Assembly: GCA_963682135.1 (NCBI GenBank)
Contig: OY821645.1
Location: 1,152,001-1,216,000, forward strand
DNA length: 64,000 nucleotides
Direction of reading: 5' to 3'
Source of the DNA: Methanothrix sp.
GTDB lineage: Archaea; Halobacteriota; Methanosarcinia; Methanotrichales; Methanotrichaceae
Shown one piece after another: positions 53,389-64,000 of this stretch; positions within the stretch are counted from its first letter, which is position 1, and each line of letters begins with the position of its first letter. Made by a program: the position numbers and the translations under genes. Under the pieces are notes generated by a model that saw nothing but the letters and a program-made list of their open reading frames with translations, did not search any database and was not told the origin of the DNA.

Positions 53389-54288
53389 ATGCCTGGCATG
53401 ATGGTGGACTCCTATGGTCGCAAAGTCACCGGCCTGCGGATCGCTCTTACTCCTCGGTGCAATCTTAATTGCATTTACTGCCACCACGAGGGCGAGGCAA
53501 AGCCCAATGGCGAGATCTCGGATGAGATGGTGGTGAGTGTTGCCCGTGCGGCGGCCCTTTTAGGCGTTCGCTCCCTGAAGTTCACGGGGGGAGAGCCCTT
53601 GCTGCGCCCCGGCCTGGCGGGACTGATCGCCCAGATGCCCCAGGAGCTTGACATCTCCCTGACCACAAACGGCATCTTTCTGGCGGAGCAGGCTGGGCCG
53701 CTGGCAGAAGCGGGGCTGGACCGGGTCAATGTGAGCCTGGACTCGCTGCGGCCCAAGGTCTACCGGGCCATCACCGGTGGCCGGGAAGGCGACCTGGAGA
53801 AGGTCCTGGCGGGAATTGATGCAGCAAAGGCCGCAGCCCTTGCTCCCATCAAGCTGAATGTGGTGGTCCTCAAGGAGAACGAGGCCGAGATTTCCGATTT
53901 GATCGATTTTTGCCGGGAGAAGGGCCTGATACTGCAGCTCATCGAACTCCTGGATCTGTGCCACCAAGGAATTTCAGGAGATATCAATGCCATCGAGCGC
54001 CGCCTTGCGGCGAAGGCGGACCGCGTCCGTGTCCGGGAGATGCACCGGCGCAAGAAGTACTTCCTGGATGGAGCGGAGGTAGAGGTGGTGCGGCCCATGG
54101 ACAACACCGAGTTTTGCGCCAACTGCACACGCCTGCGGGTGACCTCGGACGGGAAGATCAAGCCCTGCTTGCTGCGCAGCGACAATCTTGTGGAGATAGG
54201 CACCTGCGACTGTGAGCGGATTATGGGGCTGCTGCAAGAGGCGAATGCCAGGAGGGAGCCGTATTTCAGGGAGCTTTTACGATGTTAG
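53389..54288 (+). CDS. moaA: GTP 3',8-cyclase MoaA
   Basis: CNLNCIYC, TGGEP, NVSLDSL, and FCANC.RLRVT.DG..KPCL. Confidence 0.95.
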   Translation: MPGMMVDSYGRKVTGLRIALTPRCNLNCIYCHHEGEAKPNGEISDEMVVSVARAAALLGVRSLKFTGGEPLLRPGLAGLIAQMPQELDISLTTNGIFLAEQAGPLAEAGLDRVNVSLDSLRPKVYRAITGGREGDLEKVLAGIDAAKAAALAPIKLNVVVLKENEAEISDLIDFCREKGLILQLIELLDLCHQGISGDINAIERRLAAKADRVRVREMHRRKKYFLDGAEVEVVRPMDNTEFCANCTRLRVTSDGKIKPCLLRSDNLVEIGTCDCERIMGLLQEANARREPYFRELLRC

Positions 54289-54295
54289 TTGCGAT

Positions 54296-54522
54296 CTAAG
54301 ATTCATAGTTGGGATTGCCTTTGAGAAGCTCGATAAGCGCATATGTATCTGCGAATAGTTTAGCTATTGATCTCTCTTCGTTCGTCCTTCAGAGATTGTG
54401 CGTCAATCTTCCATACTTTCAAGAGGCAAAAGATGATTTTTTTCTTCAATTCAATCACTACCTCTTCCCCCTCCGATAGGTCCGGGATATCAAGAGGCAT
54501 CAGGACTTCATATATTTAGCCC
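54296..54522 (-). pseudogene. VapBC relic: DUF104-type antitoxin plus truncated PIN toxin N-terminus
   Basis: Minus strand reads ...VLMPLDIPDLSEGEEVVIE..., then (I)AKLFADTYALIELLKGNPNYES*. Confidence 0.7.
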
Positions 54523-54807
54523 GAGGCTCTCAGGAAGGATGCATACCGTCTGGTCGTGCTCCCCCGCGTGCGCGTGCGGGCGAGCGCGGGCGGCTGGCAG
54601 TGCTCAGGCGGGCCCCGGTGCGTGTGGGAGCCGGGCCGGATGACGGAGGATATCGCTGCTCGGAGGGCGCACTGGGAAGCGAGCAACTGCAGCCTCTCGT
54701 GGCTACGGTTATGGCAGAAAGCATGATGGTTGGAGTGCATTAGCTCGCTCACTTTTCCGGCCCGGCACCAGAAGTATTTTATTCTAATGTAGATTATGAA
54801 TATTACT

Positions 54808-55083
54808 ATGGGAACAGAAGCCACAAGAGCGGAGTCTGAATCCATTATCAGGGATGCGCTCCGCTGAGATCTATCTCTTTTCGAGAGCAAGGAGAGGTTA
54901 ACCTTTTCAGAAATATTGGAGATGGAGCGCAAATACGGCATGAACTCCCATGACTTCCTGGATAGATTCCAAAAAGGCACTCTGGGAGATGACCAAGATT
55001 ATTTCGTGTGGTGGAGCTTGGTTCACGGCCTTGAGACGATAAGAAGTCGAAAGGATAAGATAAAAAGGATGCTCGTTCCTTGA
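54808..55083 (+). pseudogene. antitoxin-like gene (ERKYGM.S..F...F..G.LGDD.DYF.W) with in-frame TGA
   Basis: Stop at 54865-54867. Followed by an overlapping TTG ORF start (MISDYFQKVE) that breaks off, resembling DUF6516-type partners. Confidence 0.65.
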
Positions 55084-55262
55084 TATCCGATTACTTTCAG
55101 AAAGTGGAGATCGCGTCTTCGCCTTCCAGTATCAGTCCTAGCTCTATGGGATGAGCCATCTACAAAAACTCTGCCTAGTGTTGGATATTCTATGTTTTTA
55201 AGGCTTTGCAGTAATCGACTACGCTCCAAGCTTTAAGGGGCTTAGGATTAGCAAGAGCTACA

Positions 55263-55829
55263 TTAAAGGCTGCTATTTTCATAACACGGCTCCTCCATCC
55301 ATGGGTCCAGAGATTCCAGAGGCTTTAGCTGTCTGGCTGCTTCACGCACGTTCAAGAACATTCTGCGACTCTTCTTCAGATATTTGAACCCAAAGCCCTC
55401 ATAAAACTTCGTAGCATCCTCTTTTGGGTCCACAACCAGATATCTGCATCCGATCGGACCGTCAAGAGCCGCACCTATGGCGAATAGAAGCAGAAAAGTT
55501 CCAAGTCCACGACCATGAAGTCTCCGATCCACGGCAAGCCGGGCAATCAGAAGGCAAGGATAGATAGGATACTTGCTGACATCTGGGCACTCACCATCAT
55601 CGAGACGATCCACACGAACTGAATCTGCGACCAATGCAATGTAACCTGCAACACGATCTCTGCAAAAGCATATGTGCGTTTTGTTAAGAAGGATTTCCTG
55701 CTCGCCTAATGCATCTTCTTTCAAAAACAGATTTAGATCTTCATCGCCGGAATCGAATGGCGTCAGGTTAAACCTGGCACTCAGAGGCTCGATGCTCAGT
55801 TCATCAGGCGAAATCCTTTCCCGGACCAT
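55263..55829 (-). CDS. GNAT acetyltransferase (AtaT/TacT-type toxin-like)
   Basis: FDSGDEDLN.FL, YP.LLIARLAVD....GRGLG, and VVD....A..FY..FGF. Confidence 0.9.
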   Translation of the reverse strand: MVRERISPDELSIEPLSARFNLTPFDSGDEDLNLFLKEDALGEQEILLNKTHICFCRDRVAGYIALVADSVRVDRLDDGECPDVSKYPIYPCLLIARLAVDRRLHGRGLGTFLLLFAIGAALDGPIGCRYLVVDPKEDATKFYEGFGFKYLKKSRRMFLNVREAARQLKPLESLDPWMEEPCYENSSL

Positions 55830-55981
55830 TAAAATCTGCTGCGATTGGCTCTATAAATTCGTTTGGCTTCTTTAAACATGGCTAACTGCCTTGGCGTAAA
55901 TACAGTGATCTCTTCGTTCTTCCAGAACTCCTTTGCTGCTTCACCTTCGAGAACCAAGCCCAGCCGGATCGGTTTTGCCAT
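55829..55981 (-). CDS. 50-aa putative antitoxin of the GNAT (not in ORF track)
   Basis: MAKPIRLGLVLEGEAAKEFWKNEEITVFTPRQLAMFKEAKRIYRANRSRF; TAATG coupling to the GNAT start. Confidence 0.75.
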   Translation of the reverse strand: MAKPIRLGLVLEGEAAKEFWKNEEITVFTPRQLAMFKEAKRIYRANRSRF

Positions 55982-56145
55982 CTTTCGCACCATCCTCAGG
56001 AATGCTAATTATGTTCCACTATTATTTAATGGTAATCGATCTCATGTGGAGATAGAGACGCGTTAGTCAGGATTGGCATTAGCACCACATGCGCGCTACC
56101 GCGTCCCGGCGTGCGTGTGCGGGGCGAGCATGTGGGGCGGCGGAG

Positions 56146-56672
56146 GAGCCTGGACTCGCTGCAGCGTGAAGTCTACTGGACCATCACCGGTGGCCGGAAG
56201 TGCGACCTGGAGTGGGTCCTGGCGGGAATTTATGCCGCTCTGGCCGCAGATCTATCGCCCATCAAGCTGAATGTGGTGGTCCTCAAGGAGAACGAGGCTG
56301 AGATTTCTGATTTGATCGATTTTTGCCGGGAGAAGGGCCTGATAATGCAGCTCGTTGAACTCCTGGATCTGTGCCACCAAGGAATTTCGGGTGACATCGA
56401 TGCCATCGAGCGGCGTCTGGCTGCGCAGGCGGAGCGCGTCCGTGTCCGGAAGATGCACCGGCGCAAGAAGTACTTCCTGTATGGAGCGGAGGTGGTGCGG
56501 CCCATGGACAACGCCCCAGTTTTGCGCCAACTGCACACGCCTGCGGGTGACCTCGGACGGGAAGATCAAGCCCTGCTTGCTGCGCAGCGACAACCTTGTC
56601 GAGATAGGCACCTGCGACTGTGAGCGGATTATGGGGCTGCTGCAAGAGGCCAACGCCAGGAGAGAGCCGTAT
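56146..56672 (+). pseudogene. 5'-truncated, frameshifted duplicate of the moaA 3' part (53733-54264)
   Basis: Long near-identical stretches, small deletions, a frameshift at GACAACGCCCCAGTTTTGC, and a different tail after EPY. Confidence 0.95.
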
Positions 56673-56798
56673 CTTGGGAAGGATAGGTCGCAGGCCGGGC
56701 GATCGGCAATAATCGCACCCAGGATTAGATAAATTTCTTCACAAGTTTTAATACCTCTGCTCTCATTTTCATCTTGATTAGAATTGCGGGGTGGGGCG

Positions 56799-57233
56799 AT
56801 GGTTACGAACTTAACTTTGGAGCGGATGGAAGGCCAGATCAAATGGTACAGCGAAAAAAGCTCCTGGAATCAGGAGTGGTTTAAGAAGCTCAAAGTGGCG
56901 GAAATCATTGCTGCTGCGCTGGTTCCTTTTGCAGCCGGCATAAGTGCACCGGCAGCATTTACTGGACTTCTGGGCGTAATAGTAGTAGTGCTCGAGGCGC
57001 TGCAGAGCATTTACCAGTTCCAGAGCAACTGGATATCCTACCGGTCTACGGCTGAAGCGCTGAAGCACGAGAAATATCTCTGGTATGCCAGAGCGGGGCA
57101 TTACCTCAATGCTGAGAATCCAGAGGCGCTGCTGGCGGAGAGGATTGAGGCGCTGATCTCCACAGAGAACGCGAAGTGGATCTCGGACAAGGAGCAGGCA
57201 GGAAAGGCAAGGCCGACAACGGTGCAACAGTGA
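56799..57233 (+). CDS. SLATT / DUF4231 two-TM protein
   Basis: QI.WY..KS..NQ, two TM helices, and W..YR.TAE.LK.EKYL. Confidence 0.9.
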   Translation: MVTNLTLERMEGQIKWYSEKSSWNQEWFKKLKVAEIIAAALVPFAAGISAPAAFTGLLGVIVVVLEALQSIYQFQSNWISYRSTAEALKHEKYLWYARAGHYLNAENPEALLAERIEALISTENAKWISDKEQAGKARPTTVQQ

Positions 57234-57357
57234 TGAATAATATTAATTCATTATTTATTAAAATTTTAACTCAGTGAAGGAAGCCTTTTAAGTATGCACA
57301 AATGAATGCCTGTAGGCGATGAGGCTGGCCGAATACAGGAAAAAGGTGTCTTAAAAA

Positions 57358-58692
57358 ATGGCAAATACGCAGGTGCCCTCTGAAGGCATTGAGGTCTTCT
57401 TTTCATATTCCCATAAGGATGAAGAACTGCGAGATGAGCTGGAAAAGCATCTTAGCATCCTGAAGCATCGAGAGTTAATCTCGGCTTGGCATGATCGAAA
57501 AATTAGCGCAGGCGAGGAATGGAAAGGGATGATTGATGAACACCTCAATTCTGCCAAAATTATCCTACTTCTCATCAGTTCTGATTTTCTGGCATCGAAG
57601 TACTGCTACGATATTGAAATGAAACGTGCCATTGAAAGGCATAATTTAGGGGAAGCCCGCGTGATTCCAATAATCCTTCGGCATGCTTATTGGGAAGGTT
57701 CACCATTTTCAAAGTTGCAGGCTCTACCCACAAATGCAGAACCGGTTAAAGACGGAAATTGGAGATCTATTGATGCGGCATTTAAAGATGTAGCAGAAGG
57801 CCTGGAAAAAGCAATAAATGGCTTCAAACAGGAAAATATTTACTTAGAGCCTATTCCAACACCAAGCAACAATGTGCCGAAAACAATAATAGTAGACCAA
57901 ATGCATCGAGGCGATTTCACTAAGATTACAGATGCCATCTCTGCATCAGCTCCCGGCTCACGAATTCTGGTGCGATCCGGTGTTTATGATGACGGGTTAA
58001 TAATCGATAAACCCCTGGAGATCGTGGGTGAAGGCAAACTAGGCGATGTGATAATAAGGACCGTTGGGATGAGTGCTATTCTATTCAAGACCGTAAGAGG
58101 CAAGATATCTAACCTCCTGATCCGTCAAAATGGTGGCGGCAATTGGTATGGAGTAGATATCGCCCAAGGATGCCTGGAACTAGAAAACGGTGATATTGTC
58201 TCCGAAAAGTTTGCCTGTGTTGCAGTACATGGCAATGCTTATCCAAGGATCATGAATAATAATATCCATGATGGGAGAAGTAGTGGTGTTTATGTTTTTG
58301 AAAACGGTCAAGGCGTTCTCGAAAGTAATGAAATCTATGCCAATAACCATGCTGGTGTCATGATCTCGGGTGGTGGAAATATAACAATTAGAAATAATAA
58401 TATTTATAATGGGAAAAATGTTGGCGTTTGGGTAGGTAATAATGGTAGAGGTATTATCGAAGATAACAACATCTACGGTAATGCAATGGGTGGCATTGAT
58501 ATCATAAAAGGCGGCAATCCCTCTGTCCGAGTAAATCGAATAAATGAAAATAGCTATTGGGCTATCTGGATCAATGAAAAAGGTGCTGGGACCATTGAGG
58601 ATAATGACCTTCGTAATAATAGTAGCGGCGCATGGCATATATCCGAAGACAGCAAACCTCTGGTCAAATGCTCCAGAAATCTGGAAAAGTGA
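57358..58692 (+). CDS. TIR-domain protein fused to a right-handed parallel beta-helix
   Basis: VFFSYSHKD, W.D..I.AG, S.DFL.S.YC...EM and VIPII (TIR_2), then repeated N.I..N...G(V/I).I (PbH1/NosD-like). Confidence 0.92.
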   Translation: MANTQVPSEGIEVFFSYSHKDEELRDELEKHLSILKHRELISAWHDRKISAGEEWKGMIDEHLNSAKIILLLISSDFLASKYCYDIEMKRAIERHNLGEARVIPIILRHAYWEGSPFSKLQALPTNAEPVKDGNWRSIDAAFKDVAEGLEKAINGFKQENIYLEPIPTPSNNVPKTIIVDQMHRGDFTKITDAISASAPGSRILVRSGVYDDGLIIDKPLEIVGEGKLGDVIIRTVGMSAILFKTVRGKISNLLIRQNGGGNWYGVDIAQGCLELENGDIVSEKFACVAVHGNAYPRIMNNNIHDGRSSGVYVFENGQGVLESNEIYANNHAGVMISGGGNITIRNNNIYNGKNVGVWVGNNGRGIIEDNNIYGNAMGGIDIIKGGNPSVRVNRINENSYWAIWINEKGAGTIEDNDLRNNSSGAWHISEDSKPLVKCSRNLEK

Positions 58693-58731
58693 GAAAATGA
58701 TTTAATGAAGCTGGCTCGTTATCCCTCCCCC

Positions 58732-59089
58732 CAATCCTGTGCTCGTATCCCATCGCCTCCACCCGTCGCCGCTGGCCTCCCTGCACCATCCAGATCCCCT
58801 CCGCCACCACCTTTCTGATCATCGTCAGGGCGCACACCTTGCGGGCGGCCTCCAGCCCCTCCGGCCTCCCTGTGAAGACCAGCTCGATAGTCCCCCTCTC
58901 ATGCTCATTGCCATCTCCACAGCTCTCTCCCGCCCCACCATCTCCGCCAGGCCGTCGCCCATCATGGCCGTGACTGCCTGGCTCTCGGCCAGGGTCCGGG
59001 TCTCGGCGAGGCGCGGCTCGTTATCCAGCAGCCGCGTGATGAACACGCTCTCCAACTGCGCGCTGCCAGGCCCACAGGCCCCCGCCCGC
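58732..59089 (-). pseudogene. decayed 3' fragment of thiamine-monophosphate kinase (thiL-like), copy A
   Basis: PRLAE.R.LA.S.AVTAMM.DGL, GG-YELVFT and GYEH are recoverable across frameshifts; colinear with 62046-62495. Confidence 0.8.
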
Positions 59090-59207
59090 GCGCGCCCACC
59101 TGCGACCCCGCCGTCTTTGCTGCAGAGATGGCTCTTTTTCTCGGAACCTCTTTGTATTTTAGTCGGAAGATTGAATAAAGATGAACTCCATAGACGCCTT
59201 CTGGTAT

Positions 59208-59504
59208 ATGCCCCAGAAAATTGATGAGCTGCTGAAATCCAAGCGTCAGGAGATTTTAGCCATAGCAGCCCGACATGGCGCCCGCAACCTTCGGGTCTTC
59301 GGCTCCGTAGCCCGAGGAGAGGCCGGTCCAGAGAGCGACCTGGATATTCTTGTAGAGATGGAACCGGGAAAAAGCCTATTGGACCATGTAGCTCTCATGC
59401 AAGATCTCGAAGACCTCCTGCAACGGAAAGTTGATGTGGTTAGCGAGAGGGCTCTGCACTGGTACATCCGGGACCAAGTTCTCGCTGAGGCTACGCCACT
59501 ATGA
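59208..59504 (+). CDS. minimal nucleotidyltransferase (MNT) antitoxin
   Basis: VFGSVARG.....SDLDILV and KVDVV motifs. Confidence 0.93.
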   Translation: MPQKIDELLKSKRQEILAIAARHGARNLRVFGSVARGEAGPESDLDILVEMEPGKSLLDHVALMQDLEDLLQRKVDVVSERALHWYIRDQVLAEATPL

Positions 59505-59845
59505 AGGACGACCGGCTTTACTTGATTCACATCTGGGAATGCATTCAGCGCATCGAGTCTTACTCAATTGAAGGTAAGTCTGCATTCATGGCATCAATAA
59601 TGATGCAAGATGCAATTATCAGGAACTTTGAGATTATAGGAGAAGCCACCAAGCATCTATCGATGGATATGAGACAATCAAATCCCGAAATCCAATGGCG
59701 AGAACTGGCAGGATTTCGAGATGTTCTAATCCATAATTATATGGGAGTTGATTTGGTCGAAGTCTGGAATATCATAGAAAATGAACTCCCCAAAATCAAG
59801 AACAGCCTTGAGCCAATAATGGTTAAGCGTCAGTTGCTTTTGTAA
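59501..59845 (+). CDS. HEPN (DUF86) RNase toxin
   Basis: DAIIRNFEIIGEA and RDVLIH.Y (Rx4H) motifs; ATGA overlap with the MNT gene. Confidence 0.93.
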   Translation: MKDDRLYLIHIWECIQRIESYSIEGKSAFMASIMMQDAIIRNFEIIGEATKHLSMDMRQSNPEIQWRELAGFRDVLIHNYMGVDLVEVWNIIENELPKIKNSLEPIMVKRQLLL

Positions 59846-59907
59846 GTTTCGATACAGATAGTCCTGGTTGTCAAAAATTACATGCTCCACCACATTCTGG
59901 AATGTAG

Positions 59908-60185
59908 CAGATATTGCCGTTGTCCGTGATCACCGGCCCGTCCTTCCTCAAGCCCTATCGCCGCACCAGGGCGCCCCTCAAGTCCCGCAGCCGCGGCTCC
60001 ACCAGTCGCAAGGCAAATGGTAGCACCTCAACGGCATCGGCCAGGTGAGCTTCTTTGCATACAGTTCTCATTCGCCACAATCATGAACCACTTGGCAAAG
60101 CGGGATACCGCCTTTCCCCGCGCACGCCCGCCCGCGGCCCTGTCACCCTTGATAGTGAAATGCAAACGGCCTTCTTGCCTCATCT
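59908..60185 (-). pseudogene. decayed internal fragment of ribose-5-phosphate isomerase A (rpiA-like)
   Basis: Minus strand gives IKG..AA, K.VS..AK.FMIVA.E, EVLPFA and the diagnostic RKDGPVITDNGN. Confidence 0.8.
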
Positions 60186-60339
60186 CCTTTGATGAGCCTA
60201 AGCGATCCTGTAGAAAGACACGAAGACAAAGAGAGGCCTCCGAATTATTATTAATATTTTTATATTCACTTTTCACCCATACCAATAAATAAAACCAACA
60301 TTCTATAGTTGTACGTTAAAAGTAATCCTTCGATCAATT

Positions 60340-61551
60340 ATGCCGGAAAAGCCAGCGCCAACCGAGCGATCAGGCAAGAATCGCAGCATCATCATCCCCG
60401 TCAAGCCAGCCGTGCTAGTCTGGGCCAGAGAGAGCCTGGGCAGGACCGTCGAAGAAGCTGCCGCTTACCTGGGCGAGAGTGAAGATCTGGTGCGCCGGTG
60501 GGAAGCAGGCCACGGCCAGCCCATGCTGCATCAGGTAAAGGCACTGGCCGTTTTCTACAAGCGTCCCCTGGCTGCATTCTTTCTGCCTCGCCCTCCCCAG
60601 GAGCCCTCCCTGCCCCACGACTTTCGCACTCTGCCTGATGAAAAAGAAATCCCGCTCACTCCCAAAACCAGGCTTGCCATGCGCCGGGCAAGAAGGCTGC
60701 AATCAATAGCTTCTGAGCTAAAAGAAGACCTGGAAGGCGAATTATTCTCTCTGCCGGGCAGCATCGAGCTTTCCGATGATCCCGAAGTAGCAGCAGGCAG
60801 AGTAAGAGATGCTTTGGGCGTTTCCCTGGCAGAGCAGCTCTCCTGGAAAAAGGATACGCAGGCTATGGATCAATGGAAGAAATCTGTGGAGAGACTTGGC
60901 ATCCTCGTGTTTCAGATGTCAATGCCGCTGGAAGAGGCGAGAGCTTTTTCATTCACGGATGGAGGGCTCCCGGTAATAGTAGTCAATAACAAGGACGCTT
61001 TGAAGGCCAGGATTTTTTCCCTGTTCCATGAGCTGGGACATATCCTCCTGAATGAGGGCGGCATATGCGACCCAGGTAATTTGAATGGTGATGCGTCTTC
61101 TCCAAATAGCAGGTCCATCGAGGCCTTCTGCAACTTTTTTGCCGGGGCGGTTTTGGTTCCCCGGGAAAGCTTGCTCAATCATCGATTTGTTGAGGGAAAG
61201 TCATCTTCCTACCACTGGCCGGAAAGAACTCTGGGAACAATTTCCGGTGATTTTAAAGTGAGCAAAGAGGTCGTTTTAAGACGGCTGCTCATTGCCGGGC
61301 TGACTACCAGGGAATTCTATCAAAGAAAGCACAACGAATGGATGAAGAGAGAGAAGAAACCGGAATCAATCAAAGGCATAAAGAGAGATATTCCAAAGGA
61401 ATGCCTGCAAAGAAACGGCAGGCCATTGACCTCAATGGTTCTGGATTCATATAGAAATGACAGGATCACCACCAGCGATGTGGCCGACTATCTGGGAATT
61501 CGTGTTAAGCACATCCCCGGCATTGAAAAGCTCCTTGAGGCTCAGATTTGA
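60340..61551 (+). CDS. XRE-HTH plus ImmA/IrrE zinc peptidase
   Basis: N-terminal HTH (WE.G...P), FSLFHELGH, and E.FCN.FAG.VL.P. Confidence 0.93.
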   Translation: MPEKPAPTERSGKNRSIIIPVKPAVLVWARESLGRTVEEAAAYLGESEDLVRRWEAGHGQPMLHQVKALAVFYKRPLAAFFLPRPPQEPSLPHDFRTLPDEKEIPLTPKTRLAMRRARRLQSIASELKEDLEGELFSLPGSIELSDDPEVAAGRVRDALGVSLAEQLSWKKDTQAMDQWKKSVERLGILVFQMSMPLEEARAFSFTDGGLPVIVVNNKDALKARIFSLFHELGHILLNEGGICDPGNLNGDASSPNSRSIEAFCNFFAGAVLVPRESLLNHRFVEGKSSSYHWPERTLGTISGDFKVSKEVVLRRLLIAGLTTREFYQRKHNEWMKREKKPESIKGIKRDIPKECLQRNGRPLTSMVLDSYRNDRITTSDVADYLGIRVKHIPGIEKLLEAQI

Positions 61552-62029
61552 TCCAGCTTCGGTTGCAAGAAGGCTACTGCATCGATACATCTGCATTGAT
61601 CGACCTGCACACTAACCATTATCCTCCTGATATCTTCCCCTGTCTATGGAATGACCTGGAATCCCTGGTTGATCAGGGACTCTTAATCGCTCCTGATGAG
61701 GTGTTTCGAGAAATCTGCGTGAAGGATGATGATTTGGCAAAGTGGGGAAAGGCCAATCGGAAGATGTTCACTCCCCTTGATGACGATCAATCCGAGAAGT
61801 CTACAGCATCCTGGAAAAGTTTCCTGGCCTCGTGGATTTGAATAAAACTATTCCTGAAGCAGACCCGTTTCTTATTGCCCTGGCTAAATGCAGAGCCTGG
61901 ACGGTTGTTACATCGGAAAAGCCTAATAATAGCCCAGTCAGGCCGAAGATACCGAATGTATGCAAAGGCCTCGATGTCAGATGGATCAAATTGCTGGAGT
62001 TCTTTAGGGAAGTGAAGCTGAAATATTGA
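61548..62029 (+). pseudogene. DUF4411 (PIN-like) gene with a single frameshift near 61790
   Basis: YCIDTSALI...YP.DIFP.LW in one frame; ADPFLIALA...VVT.E...KIP.VC in the next. Confidence 0.85.
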
Positions 62030-62045
62030 TAGGATGATCGGCATG

Positions 62046-62495
62046 CAATCCTGTGCTCGTATCCCATCGCCTCCACCCGTCGCCGTTGGCCTCCCTGCAC
62101 CACCCAGATCTCCTCCACCACTACCATCTCTCTGATCACCGTCAGGGCGCACACCTTGCGGGCCGCCTGCAGCCCATCCGGCCCGACGGTGAAGGCCGGC
62201 TCATAGTCCCCGCCCGTGCTCATCACCATCTCCCGCGCCTATCTCCGGTCCCACCACCTCCGCCAGGCCAGCGGCCACGGGCAACGCCTCTTCCTGCACC
62301 ACAAAGCCCACCCGGCTCACCTGCGCCAGGTCGGAGAGCGAGAGCGCCAGGCCGTCGATGTTGTCCATTACGGTCGTGACTGCCTGGCTTTTGGCCTGGG
62401 CCCGGCCCGCGGCCAGGCGCTTCTCGGGCTCCAGCGGCCTCGTGATGAACTCGCCCTCCACTGCACTGCTGCCAGGCCCACAGGCCCCCGCCCGC
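62046..62495 (-). pseudogene. decayed 3' fragment of thiL-like gene, copy B
   Basis: MDNIDGLALSLSDLA..S.VGF, GGDYE..FTV, LTVI and GYEH match the ThiL C-terminal domain. Confidence 0.85.
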
Positions 62496-62705
62496 CCGCG
62501 CCCAGCGCGCGCGGGCGGGACGAGCCTGCACATATGCGGCGGGGTAGGCTTTGGCGGAATCTTTTCCATATGCTCAATATATTTATTTTTTTCGTCCAAA
62601 AAAGATAAATTAATCATGATTGAATCACCCAATTGAGGATACAAATGAGCAGATCGACATTTTTGACCAAAGGCTTTTTATTTGATCCTGCGATGATACC
62701 CCGAT

Positions 62706-63224
62706 ATGAAGAAAGGGAATGCGCTAATGGCATTAATCTTGTTGTTTAGTGCGGTGGTTTTCGTAACGCCGTTGGCTTTACCAAAAGAAGAACCTATGGC
62801 CGTACCAAATGCTTCGCTAAGCGCATTATCCAACAAGACCGAACTCGTTTCATTTGTTGAGAGTGCTGTGGCCTATGCCCAAAAGAACGGCAAAGATAAA
62901 GCACTCAAGGAGTTCAGCAATAATACCGGCTTATTTGTCCAAGGGGACTTCTACATCTACGCTTACGACTTCAATGGAACTTGCCTTGCCCACCCATTCA
63001 AATCCGATTGGATAGGCAAAAACAAGCTGGATGTAACTGATTCGAATGGCGTTCCATCTCTCAAGAACACTATCAATGTAGCCAGGGAGGGGAAAGGATT
63101 CACTTACTTCATCTTCCCGAACCCTGCTCACGATAATAGAGATGAATTCAAGATTGCTTACGCGATGAAAGTGGATGACGATTGGTTCCTTGGATCTGGA
63201 ATCTACATATCGTGTCCGCAATAG
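62706..63224 (+). CDS. secreted single Cache-domain protein
   Basis: Signal peptide; G.DKAL.EF, YIYAYD..G..LAHP, D.NG and W.LGSGIY. Confidence 0.9.
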   Translation: MKKGNALMALILLFSAVVFVTPLALPKEEPMAVPNASLSALSNKTELVSFVESAVAYAQKNGKDKALKEFSNNTGLFVQGDFYIYAYDFNGTCLAHPFKSDWIGKNKLDVTDSNGVPSLKNTINVAREGKGFTYFIFPNPAHDNRDEFKIAYAMKVDDDWFLGSGIYISCPQ

Positions 63225-63390
63225 ATAGCTATTCAAATTTTTGCTTTTGCGTTCAGGTCGTCAGTCTCCGCTACCGTCCCCTTAGTCAGTCATTAGGGAA
63301 GTCGTGAAGATTCTGCTAGTACATCTGGGCCTAATTAGCGCCCATGATTATGAAGGAATAATGCATCTTTTTAAACGCCTGATCGTTTTT

Positions 63391-63445
63391 CGCGGCTTCG
63401 CGTGAGATTCAATAGGGTCTGGTTTCGCGCGACGACACGAAGCCC
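63391..63445. repeat. short palindromic element (REP-like), copy 2
   Basis: GGCTTCG...CGAAGCC arms; related to 34221-34265. Confidence 0.55.
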
Positions 63446-63467
63446 CGATGTCAAAATATTGGTCTAT

Positions 63468-63591
63468 TATCATGGAAAATGAACTCCGCCAAATCGAGCA
63501 GCCTTGAGCCAATAATGATCGAGCGTCAGTGGCTTTTGTAAGTCTCGATACAGCGCGTCCAGTATGTCAAATATTTCCGTGCTCTACCACA
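63468..63591 (+). repeat. partial duplicate of the HEPN gene 3' end and downstream sequence (59770-59894)
   Basis: Shared GAAAATGAACTCC, CAGCCTTGAGCCAATAATG and AGCGTCAGT.GCTTTTGTAAGT.TCGATACAG. Confidence 0.9.
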
Positions 63592-63775
63592 CCTAATATG
63601 GGACTGATCTTCTCCGCCAATGCCTCTGGCTCCTTAGTTGTTCCTAAGTCCAAGTCCATGAAGAAGTTACTGTTGTCCTGATCATACAGGCTGCTAAATC
63701 CAGAATTTTAATGATGATATTACACGCAAGTGTCTATTAATATTAGGAATGCATTCTAGGGTATGGAGTGCAAAA

Positions 63776-64000
63776 ATGAGACTTAGAGTAATCAGCGCCA
63801 GAAATGAAATACCAAATTTGAACCCAAATGAGAAGACAGTTCACCTGGCCTTCCGAGCCAGTAATGTAGATTTCCTTAACCTGATGCAGAGATGCCCCAG
63901 GCTGAGAATGATTCAGGTCCCGCCATCCTACCGCAAGACTATGTCCAATGCCATCCAGGTATTCCTGGAGATGCAGGGCGTTGAGATGCTGGAAGGCGAC
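63776..64000 (+). CDS. DUF1699 family protein (3'-truncated by window edge)
   Basis: MRLRVISARNEIPNLNPNEKTVHLAFRASNVDF...P.SY.KT.S..I..FLEMQG...LEGD. Confidence 0.85.
   Translation, partial: MRLRVISARNEIPNLNPNEKTVHLAFRASNVDFLNLMQRCPRLRMIQVPPSYRKTMSNAIQVFLEMQGVEMLEGD

Follow-up and report, generated by a model that had tools for sequence, protein, structure and literature searches.

The genomic region examined here is an insertion hotspot next to moaA in a Methanothrix species, in which defence and toxin-antitoxin genes are interleaved with partial copies of the housekeeping genes moaA, thiL and rpiA (positions 54267-63700; the partial copies, or relics, are indicated as moaA', thiL' and rpiA'). 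The window is the whole 64-kb stretch of DNA that was analysed, corresponding to positions 1152001-1216000 of the source genome (G000, a single 3.04-Mb contig), and all coordinates are those of the window unless the genome is mentioned. From the comparison with the corresponding loci of relatives, the relics of the flanking genes appear to be displaced 3' parts of these genes, pushed behind newer modules together with their older surroundings, with the intact gene ending in newly arrived DNA. The pattern that emerges from comparing about nine genomes is solid, and it makes the integrase-free growth of defence islands in archaea testable. The mechanism is deduced from the scars, and a nested stack built by one homologous end in a hotspot-flanking gene and one illegitimate joint is the reading we favour, giving it about an even chance; part of the structure is old, inherited and duplicated. 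Genes were called with Pfam profiles, relics with nhmmer and tblastn, and defence labels with PADLOC. The features, with gene positions in nucleotides (nt), are as follows.

53389-54288, plus strand: intact moaA, left flank of the hotspot (Pfam Radical_SAM, E 5.2e-30; Mob_synth_C, 3.5e-15).
54267-56145, no strand: probably the youngest inserted block, with the new moaA tail, small open reading frames (ORFs), a GC-rich stretch and GNAT with its partner (ORF, Pfam and paralogue comparison).
54360-54500, minus strand: small AF2212-like ORF (weak match, E 0.0014, below the Pfam cut-off).
54530-54760, no strand: GC-rich stretch with no family match (nhmmer and Pfam).
54868-55083, plus strand: small ORF with no family; its sole match is a paralogue at genome 1887039-1887248.
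55263-55829, minus strand: GNAT (Pfam).
55829-55993, minus strand: small upstream partner ORF of GNAT (ORF call).
56146-56732, plus strand: moaA' relic, comprising moaA nt 345-877 (56146-56673) and the ancestral C-terminal tail (GKDRSQAGRSAIIAPRIR and stop codon); frameshifted (nhmmer, E 1.5e-171).
56784-57233, plus strand: SLATT/DUF4231 protein with two transmembrane segments (Pfam DUF4231, 2.9e-23; SLATT_1, 6.1e-09).
57358-58692, plus strand: TIR (ThsB-like) and right-handed beta-helix protein (Pfam TIR_2, 3.5e-15; Beta_helix, 1.2e-37; PADLOC ThsB1, 9.4e-58).
58721-59127, minus strand: thiL' relic 1, thiL nt 454-939 (nhmmer, E 1.7e-47 and 8.8e-29; tblastn).
59181-59504 (likely true start 59208), plus strand: MNT (Pfam NTP_transf_2, 1.8e-14; PADLOC PDC-S09).
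59501-59845, plus strand: HEPN/HepT (Pfam HepT-like, 3.2e-27).
59851-60160, minus strand: rpiA' relic 1, rpiA nt 291-652, lacking an internal segment and interrupted by a stop codon (nhmmer, E 2e-49; tblastn).
60340-61551, plus strand: helix-turn-helix domain and IrrE/M78 peptidase, RmrA-like (Pfam Peptidase_M78, 1.1e-20, and HTH_3; PADLOC RmrA, 5.1e-25).
61548-62029, plus strand: DUF4411, broken by a frameshift into two ORFs, 61548-61841 and 61832-62029 (matching Pfam DUF4411 profile positions 1-73 and 100-158).
62046-62510, minus strand: thiL' relic 2, thiL nt 467-928 (nhmmer, E 1.7e-109).
62706-63224, plus strand: single-Cache-domain protein with an N-terminal hydrophobic stretch (Pfam sCache_2, 2.5e-20).
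63468-63591, plus strand: HEPN' 3' fragment and downstream stretch (82.5% identity to 59770-59894).
63547-63684, minus strand: rpiA' relic 2, rpiA nt 515-652 (nhmmer, E 1.1e-22; tblastn, amino acids 175-208).
63689-64000, continuing past the window end, plus strand: start of a multi-copy DUF1699 block (gene from 63749), the right edge of the relic stack (Pfam DUF1699, 8.3e-56).

The relic matches are not due to chance because the nhmmer E-values range from 1.1e-22 to 1.5e-171. An order of genes and relics had been listed in a first-pass annotation of the sequence, and 11 of its 14 items were found at or near the places given; the second rpiA' is an addition to that list.

The polarity of the displacement is best documented at moaA. 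Nucleotides 1-878 of the gene align in all 15 other resident alleles, so that it qualifies as a shared anchor, and the allele homology ends at the EPYF motif (nt 878; 878-886 by taking into account the 15 other resident alleles). Beyond this point, codons 294-299 of the resident G000 gene (RELLRC and stop codon, from approximately 54267) are a novel tail that belongs to the inserted DNA, and the resident moaA of G016 also ends in a novel tail. The ancestral tail, GKDR(L/S)QAGRS(T/A)IIAP.. and stop codon, is present in the resident genes of G010 and G012 (slightly diverged in the latter) and in the relics of G016 and G000. Furthermore, the G000 relic is followed by SLATT, as is the resident moaA of G010, G017 and G004. 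With both the ancestral tail and the ancestral neighbour, the relic is therefore the old gene end in its old context, and it is the intact gene that ends in newly arrived DNA. The first-pass annotation had recognized that the two tails differ, which is confirmed, and had regarded the relic as a donor allele, which is not, the polarity being reversed: the relic tail is ancestral and the resident one novel. The relic is 88-94% identical to the resident gene, with a 6-bp deletion and a 1-bp insertion. As for the protein, resident MoaA lacks the approximately 20-residue ancestral tail and carries six new residues instead, and tails have been replaced in several relatives too. A similar situation is found at the opposite flank in G015, where the thiL relic retains a conserved 70-nt spacer and an integrase fragment, and the intact thiL adjoins different DNA. 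Thus, to judge from the aligned loci, a displaced 3' part of the anchor gene is kept behind a newer module with its older context in three instances (moaA in G000 and G016, thiL in G015).

The relationship between moaA and thiL emerged from a survey of 66 Methanotrichaceae loci, 62 of which have a full moaA, 53 of these with at least 1 kb of downstream sequence. In 19 of the 53 loci a complete thiL is encoded on the opposite strand no more than 2.5 kb from moaA, in 14 of them at no more than 260 bp, and the close pairs include the most distant genomes surveyed (57-66% MoaA identity). By gene order, moaA and thiL are thus ancestral convergent neighbours in the Methanotrichaceae, and their 3' ends are the apparent bounds of a genus-wide insertion hotspot. 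The content of the gap varies from 84 bp with no gene (G008) to SLATT (G017), SLATT-TIR (G004), TIR proteins with SLATT (G054), and 2.9 to 7 kb of other genes in G012, G011, G001 and G070; SLATT is directly 3' of moaA in G017, G004, G010 and at loci L098, L115, L117 and L126. The source genome departs from this arrangement in that its resident thiL (genome 2378616-2379554, plus strand) is now 1.17 Mb from moaA and its resident rpiA is at genome 82618-83310 (minus strand). The proposal that intact copies of both genes would be found just beyond the window was not borne out: the 18 kb to its right contain no thiL, rpiA or integrase, and encode DUF1699, a CobN fragment, FecCD, a binding protein, an Mg-chelatase-like ATPase, an ABC transporter, HicAB, HEPN-TPR, a serpin, PIN and an IS200-type transposase. 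In G001 and G011, however, the DNA is collinear with the window up to the equivalent of 64905 and then with genome 2383850 down to 2377294, which comprises thiL and its upstream gene. Therefore, thiL was once the right flank of this hotspot and was later removed by a rearrangement. A simple 1.17-Mb inversion was considered and rejected: in G001:C7, the only relative with a readable other junction, the neighbour on the 1216947 side matches genome 888653-889458 and not 2383851 onwards. A 580-bp repeat (genome 2383844-2384423; L075 7844-8423), 96% identical to 2846166-2846754, starts exactly at the thiL-side collinearity break.

Relics of the flanking genes recur at the hotspot in about nine genomes and, in the 66-locus survey, only in those whose MoaA is at least 90% identical to that of the source genome. 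In G016, moaA' nt 397-878 follows a different GNAT pair and the terminal 27 codons of SLATT; G070 has two thiL' relics; in G054 a thiL' lies between two TIR modules; G015 has one thiL' adjoining moaA and a second joined to MNT-HEPN; G010 has thiL' nt 733-939 plus approximately 25 nt, with 92.7% identity to the intact thiL of that genome in an alignment of 218 nt; G012 has a small thiL' fragment; G053 has thiL' nt 458-930 fused to moaA' nt 322-461; and locus L153 contains two moaA' pieces and a thiL'. In every case the relic is the hotspot-proximal 3' part of the gene. The 5' cut points of moaA' differ per genome (nt 345, 397 and approx. 322), and those of thiL' fall at nt 454-479 (four relics), 584-588 (two), 730-748 (three) and 844 (one). 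The joints between cargo and moaA are spread over nt 878-912 (approx. 35 nt), with other genomes diverging after GK, GKD, GKERLRA or GRS, a scatter that argues against a single att site. The only joint for which both parents are readable is that of G016, between the SLATT stop codon and moaA nt 397, and it shows an imperfect microhomology of 2-5 nt.

In the mechanism that we favour, donor DNA would span from inside the flanking gene, over its 3' end, into different cargo. Its homologous end would recombine in the gene and the other end would join inside the recipient's old copy. The product would be an outer gene that is intact and runs into the new cargo, and an inner copy, truncated at its 5' end, which would stay with the older cargo and then decay. 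Such an event would correspond to homology-facilitated illegitimate recombination (HFIR) or to the equivalent single-crossover insertion of a circularised fragment carrying a piece of the gene. The polarity observed at moaA fits what one-sided homologous and illegitimate recombination would predict. With this assumption, the outer copy would always be intact because of selection, and the relics would always be 3' parts by geometry, since it is two 3' ends that bound the hotspot. As to the order of events, the GNAT block with moaA' (9% diverged) would be the youngest, thiL' and rpiA' (20-30% diverged) would be older, and the rearrangement that moved thiL with its side of the hotspot 1.17 Mb away would have occurred later. 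For the recombination mechanism, the provenance of the donors (kin or the same genome) and this order we rely on inference.

The rpiA' relics are explained by the origin of the cargo. Of 18 MNT loci taken from other genomes (L026-L043), all but L027, L036 and L042 (15 loci) have MNT-HEPN adjoining the rpiA 3' end, and positions 59206-60089 are collinear with the rpiA locus of G043 at 82% identity. Since MNT-HEPN is native to the rpiA 3' end, the rpiA' relics are passengers of an rpiA-hotspot segment. In G052 the GNAT pair, IrrE-DUF4411, MNT-HEPN and rpiA lie in a row, with proteins 78-94% identical to those encoded here; positions 55263-56042 are 86% identical to the same rpiA hotspot (L053), and 54303-54506 are 78% identical to that of G060 (L034). 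In the source genome the GNAT, IrrE-DUF4411 and MNT-HEPN modules are present only in this island, and the flank of its own rpiA carries a DDE transposase. The rpiA flanks are thus, to judge from these loci, a second insertion hotspot, from which MNT-HEPN-rpiA' and the IrrE-DUF4411 and GNAT modules derive, and the segment found here probably came from kin or from the lineage's own rpiA locus. In G043:C56 (L049 1754-2347), rpiA matches residues 1-198 of 230 only and MNT-HEPN follows directly, so that cargo seems to have replaced the C-terminal tail of RpiA, as at moaA; the same genome has a second, tandem MNT copy. As a separate observation, all 18 MNT loci of other genomes lose similarity at base 59206, which is essentially the MNT start codon. 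On these alignments the left edge of the MNT cassette is sharp, and the DNA upstream of it differs from genome to genome.

Phylogenetic trees of the relics had been suggested as a way to establish their origin, on the expectation that captured relics would be closer to foreign alleles. For moaA (nt 345-878; 15 resident alleles and two relics, with G008, 258 nt, left out), the G000 relic is sister to the resident moaA (support 99/94), and the G016 relic takes no resolved position. For the 3' part of thiL (13 alleles and four long relics, with four shorter ones excluded), the two relics of G000 form a sister pair (96/95), the resident thiL and that of G010 group together (100/99), and the four long relics form one group weakly (68/82); here the resident gene is not the nearest relative of the relics, and the answer from the trees is thus mixed. 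Neither of them shows a capture from foreign alleles. Donors cannot be read from identity tables either, an approach that was rejected because thiL' and rpiA' are about equally distant from all alleles (75-82% and 61-74% identity, respectively, to every allele), rpiA' being too decayed for a placement. That the two thiL' relics are each other's closest relatives points to an internal duplication of an island segment. Consistently, the units thiL'-MNT-HEPN-rpiA' and thiL'-Cache-HEPN'-rpiA' are paralogous, with a spacing of 3314-3696 nt and 78-97% identity, and the Cache gene sits where the other unit has MNT and the 5' part of HEPN. On sequence grounds, at least one duplication, that of the unit thiL'-MNT-HEPN-rpiA', has occurred. 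The joint between thiL' relic 1 and MNT has the same layout, base for base, in G000 and G015, which is another species; it must therefore predate this genome or have been transferred in one piece. Thus, of the serial capture of DNA from relatives through core-gene ends, as initially proposed, the one-sided homology with an illegitimate joint gains from the polarity of the relics and their variable cut points, the capture of foreign alleles is not shown and at least one step is a duplication. The stepwise build-up does not hold for the thiL'-MNT joint, which was probably inherited rather than built in this genome.

Several considerations weigh against the recombination mechanism set out above. 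No donor has been identified, and the sister position of moaA' and resident moaA fits local duplication as well as conspecific capture, which are not distinguishable with a collection of one genome per species. The mutual relationship of the two thiL' relics, with a cut point nearly shared with the G015 and G053 relics (nt 454-479), looks like one ancestral relic followed by duplication. The flat identities of thiL' and rpiA' leave their origin unreadable, and microhomology can be read at one joint only, that of G016. On the thiL side, the layout of G010 and G070 is, as far as gene order goes, the canonical form of an integrase-made island. Finally, DNA uptake and HFIR are not known from this lineage, and no archaeal paper on HFIR was found in a literature search limited largely to open-access journals.

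The latter layout is the starting point of an alternative explanation, namely integrase-driven tandem accretion at the 3' ends of thiL, and perhaps moaA, so that the relics would be old att repeats and the integrases would have since been lost. We regard it as unlikely, but well worth weighing. In G001, G011, G070 and G059 the thiL stop codon is followed, after approximately 70 nt, by a C-terminal fragment of a tyrosine recombinase, and in G015 such a fragment adjoins the relic. Of 59 genomes searched, 29 gave a match, and in 11 of these the fragment is, by coordinates, next to thiL; the homologous stretch of the source genome (genome 2379640-2379943) is decayed. G010 has the order thiL, recombinase fragment, three ORFs and thiL', and G070 also has moaA beyond the repeat. 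The thiL' cut points fall into classes common to several genomes (nt 454-479, 584-588 and 730-748). Intact recombinases also exist: the family, of approximately 195 residues, has 14 distinct copies outside G000, seven of which begin at residue 76-78 of a frame of roughly 200 residues and two of which are complete, and the copy of G056 lies inside a 4.9-kb unit with 53-bp direct repeats (L070 5136-5188 and 10041-10093). Several genomes have sequences like the inner end of this unit in their hotspot, and such a sequence is also present at the window-equivalent positions 64829-64887. With recombinase fragments and mobile-element end sequences in place, the hotspot has therefore hosted integrative elements, and the description of it as free of integrases holds for this interval and not genus-wide. 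The complete recombinase copies are in G031:C90 and G056:C59 (L069 12391-12996 and L070 9142-9735), with fragments in L015, L017, L045, L047, L060, L067 and L073; the break at codon 77 is recurrent, with unrelated DNA upstream. An SSV-type split integrase at thiL was rejected, as the N-terminal 76 residues were not found in any of the hotspot loci searched (tblastn, E up to 1e-3) and no core is shared upstream of codon 77.

However, no integrase domain is encoded between 54200 and 63760, in agreement with the initial statement that a recombinase is absent. None of the five matches of a genome-wide PF00589 scan falls within the island, and recombinase and transposase families are absent from the 15 ORFs and from 67 further stop-to-stop frames of at least 55 residues in this interval, the other 13 of 80 frames being already covered by the ORF scans; the island also contains no tRNA genes and no Rfam families. 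An integrase beside its target, as in tandem-accretion islands, is thus missing from the interval, and in the relatives only fragments lie beside thiL. Nor is there an att core with a fixed boundary at moaA, where the cut points differ per genome and the joints are scattered as described above, although the thiL cut points do fall into shared classes. The repeats, of 200-530 nt, are far above the 53-bp repeat of the recombinase family; the truncated ends are joined to chromosomal DNA of another hotspot, including an rpiA fragment, which is unexpected for a discrete element; and in G015 the 'element' between thiL and thiL' would be approximately 1.1 kb against a repeat of 460 nt.

It may also be argued that the relics arose by local segmental duplication (unequal crossing-over or template switching) followed by decay, with cassettes later swapped or lost, so that no outside DNA would be needed for the relics. 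This account, to which we assign the same low probability as to integrase accretion, takes strength from the trees, where moaA' is sister to resident moaA and the two thiL' to each other, and from the paralogy of the two thiL'..rpiA' units. It is also in line with the head-to-tail type of joints seen in G053 (thiL' at nt 458 with moaA' nt 322-461) and G016 (SLATT end with moaA' at nt 397), and the confinement of rpiA-type cargo to this island in the source genome fits an intragenomic move. On the other hand, the expected head-to-tail joint of thiL' and moaA' is absent in G000, where no thiL' remnant was found directly left of moaA' by nhmmer or BLAST. The block 54267-56145 is unrelated to the DNA that follows moaA', so that extra insertions exactly at the joint would be required; the new tail of resident moaA is continuous with the new DNA; and in the tree the resident thiL stands apart from the thiL' pair. 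No clear mosaic pattern distinguishes the 5' and 3' parts of resident moaA.

The possibilities that the relics are 5'-truncated retro-copies, whose 3' ends would be expected to be kept, or that repeats misled the assembler into a chimera, are very improbable, retro-copies having been named as a less likely alternative from the outset: the relics are contiguous with the same neighbours as the full genes in relatives (moaA'-SLATT, TIR-thiL', HEPN-rpiA'), the same architecture is found in independent genomes, the repeat copies in the island are 78-94% identical to each other and not identical, and contigs from two studies bridge the joints with no differences. The last result answers the initial concern about misassembly. 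The runs concerned are X10 and X11, either of which could have supplied the assembly itself, and their contigs match the island in five pieces (54213-56287, 56621-58761, 58742-59946, 59927-62075 and 62056-63721), with breaks only within the repeated moaA, thiL' and rpiA' stretches.

An extension of the favoured recombination mechanism would be that a relic and its defence cassette form a unit that host homologous recombination excises and re-inserts at the intact gene, so that cassettes could pass from the 3' end of one housekeeping gene to that of another, and from species to species within the genus. Archaeal immunity genes would then be exchanged independently of integrases, with repeated gene fragments in the role that att sites have in integrons and islands. 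We consider this extension speculative and rather improbable. The hints for it are the presence of the same cargo at rpiA in G052 and here, the occurrence of the thiL'-MNT joint in two species, and a low-depth contig of the metagenome X1. In this run, joints 55110 to 53733 (depth 6) and 58797 to 62257 (depth 2.7) are represented by one contig each with 90% likeness and are to be read as hints only; the second contig unites the two thiL' relics, the intervening block missing.

Arrays of a comparable appearance are known in bacteria. For the effector-immunity arrays of Vibrio cholerae's type VI secretion system (T6SS), HFIR has been proposed, and it is reported there as hypothesised also for Rhs arrays with orphaned 3' regions (PMC5361080); the same source cites HFIR in the transformable bacteria Acinetobacter, S. 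pneumoniae and P. stutzeri. As far as these arrays and those of the Rhs/contact-dependent inhibition (CDI) type are described in the parts of that source consulted, they share with the present island a one-sided conserved anchor, new modules added beside it, older modules and displaced 3' ends pushed back, and no integrase. They differ in that the anchors here are the housekeeping genes moaA, thiL and rpiA rather than a toxin gene, and in that there are two convergent anchors with relics of both, an archaeal host and a partial internal duplication. Similarly, bacterial HFIR, in what the source relates of it, combines one homologous anchor with one illegitimate joint at a short microhomology, but it is known from experimental single events, whereas here the mechanism is deduced from scars. 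The E. coli core-gene hotspots with defence islands (PMC10121019, from the portion seen) are alike in having a fixed site between conserved genes and different defence systems per genome, and unlike in that scars are the main feature here and the host is a methanogen.

Tyrosine integrases make islands at tRNA genes or at gene 3' ends, with tandem accretion and direct repeats of part of the target. The present island resembles these in the series of intact target, cargo and target 3' fragment, and in the integrase remnant beside thiL in relatives; it differs from them in the 200-530-nt repeats with variable boundaries, the lack of an integrase in the interval, the rpiA passengers and the scattered moaA joints. 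By title and abstract, with mostly open-access coverage, no archaeal case of HFIR, no Methanothrix defence island and no Methanosaeta integrase island of this kind was found. The assembly of defence islands without mobile-element genes is scarcely documented in archaea. The moaA, thiL and rpiA scars record which DNA came with which flank and in which relative order, and about nine genomes of one genus represent different stages. If recombination alone were responsible, methanogens that dominate anaerobic digesters and wetlands would swap immunity genes at housekeeping-gene ends by ordinary recombination; if not, the structure would fall back to an ordinary decayed integrase island.

As for the modules themselves, MNT and HEPN are adjacent ORFs with a 4-nt overlap, the arrangement expected of a predicted MntA/HepT toxin-antitoxin pair. 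The 3' end of thiL' relic 1 is 29 nt past the stop codon of the TIR gene. The latter is of the ThsB type, but its partner is SLATT/DUF4231 and no ThsA model of PADLOC matches, so that the pair is not recognized as Thoeris. By comparison with RosmerTA, the RmrA models match the IrrE gene at 5.1e-25, its neighbour is the frameshifted DUF4411 and no RmrT model matches. The IrrE-DUF4411 module may be half dead, with the IrrE/RmrA-like gene intact by its reading frame and DUF4411 disrupted; in the relative G052 (L053 4374-4853) the two DUF4411 halves are in one frame. No PADLOC match was obtained for GNAT, its partner ORF, SLATT, HEPN, DUF4411, Cache and DUF1699. Paralogues of the Cache gene elsewhere in the genome are 66-71% identical. 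The GC content per 500-bp bin follows the pattern of the modules, with 0.67 in the relic-rich bin 62000-62499 and 0.41-0.43 in the bins of the TIR gene.

Within the youngest block, three of the initial assignments could not be sustained. The supposed VapBC relic corresponds to the AF2212-like ORF with its sub-threshold match, the antitoxin relic at 54868-55083 has no family and only a genomic paralogue, and the GC-rich stretch at 54530-54760, taken as a relic, matches neither the thiL, moaA and rpiA profiles nor Pfam. That this stretch might be a decayed thiL was specifically rejected, since nhmmer gave no match at E up to 1 and the short BLAST matches were at chance level. In a wetland metagenome contig (X1) a 24-nt GC-rich insertion is found behind 54587, so that the length of the stretch is variable in nature.

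A third thiL relic is present at genome 2182777-2183151 (L087; thiL match 2182777-2183042), covering amino acids 193-312 with an internal deletion. It is joined to a copy of the window-equivalent positions 64788-64905 and lies beside an IS605-type TnpB; by these junctions it is a piece of the hotspot that has moved elsewhere. In G053:C151 (L051 7-2092), the thiL'-moaA' joint has a XamI-like restriction endonuclease and a C5 cytosine methyltransferase as neighbours, a further type of defence cargo at the hotspot.

At the right edge, the DUF1699 block runs from 63689 to genome 1216905 and is one of six copies in the genome, the others being at genome 2582960-2583476, 90463-90922, 722304-722756, 2399973-2400363 and 2213347-2213540. 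Its left boundary is identical in four genomes (the present one, G053, G015 and G070) with four different neighbours, namely rpiA', moaA', thiL' and another sequence, and the block behaves like a discrete mobile unit.

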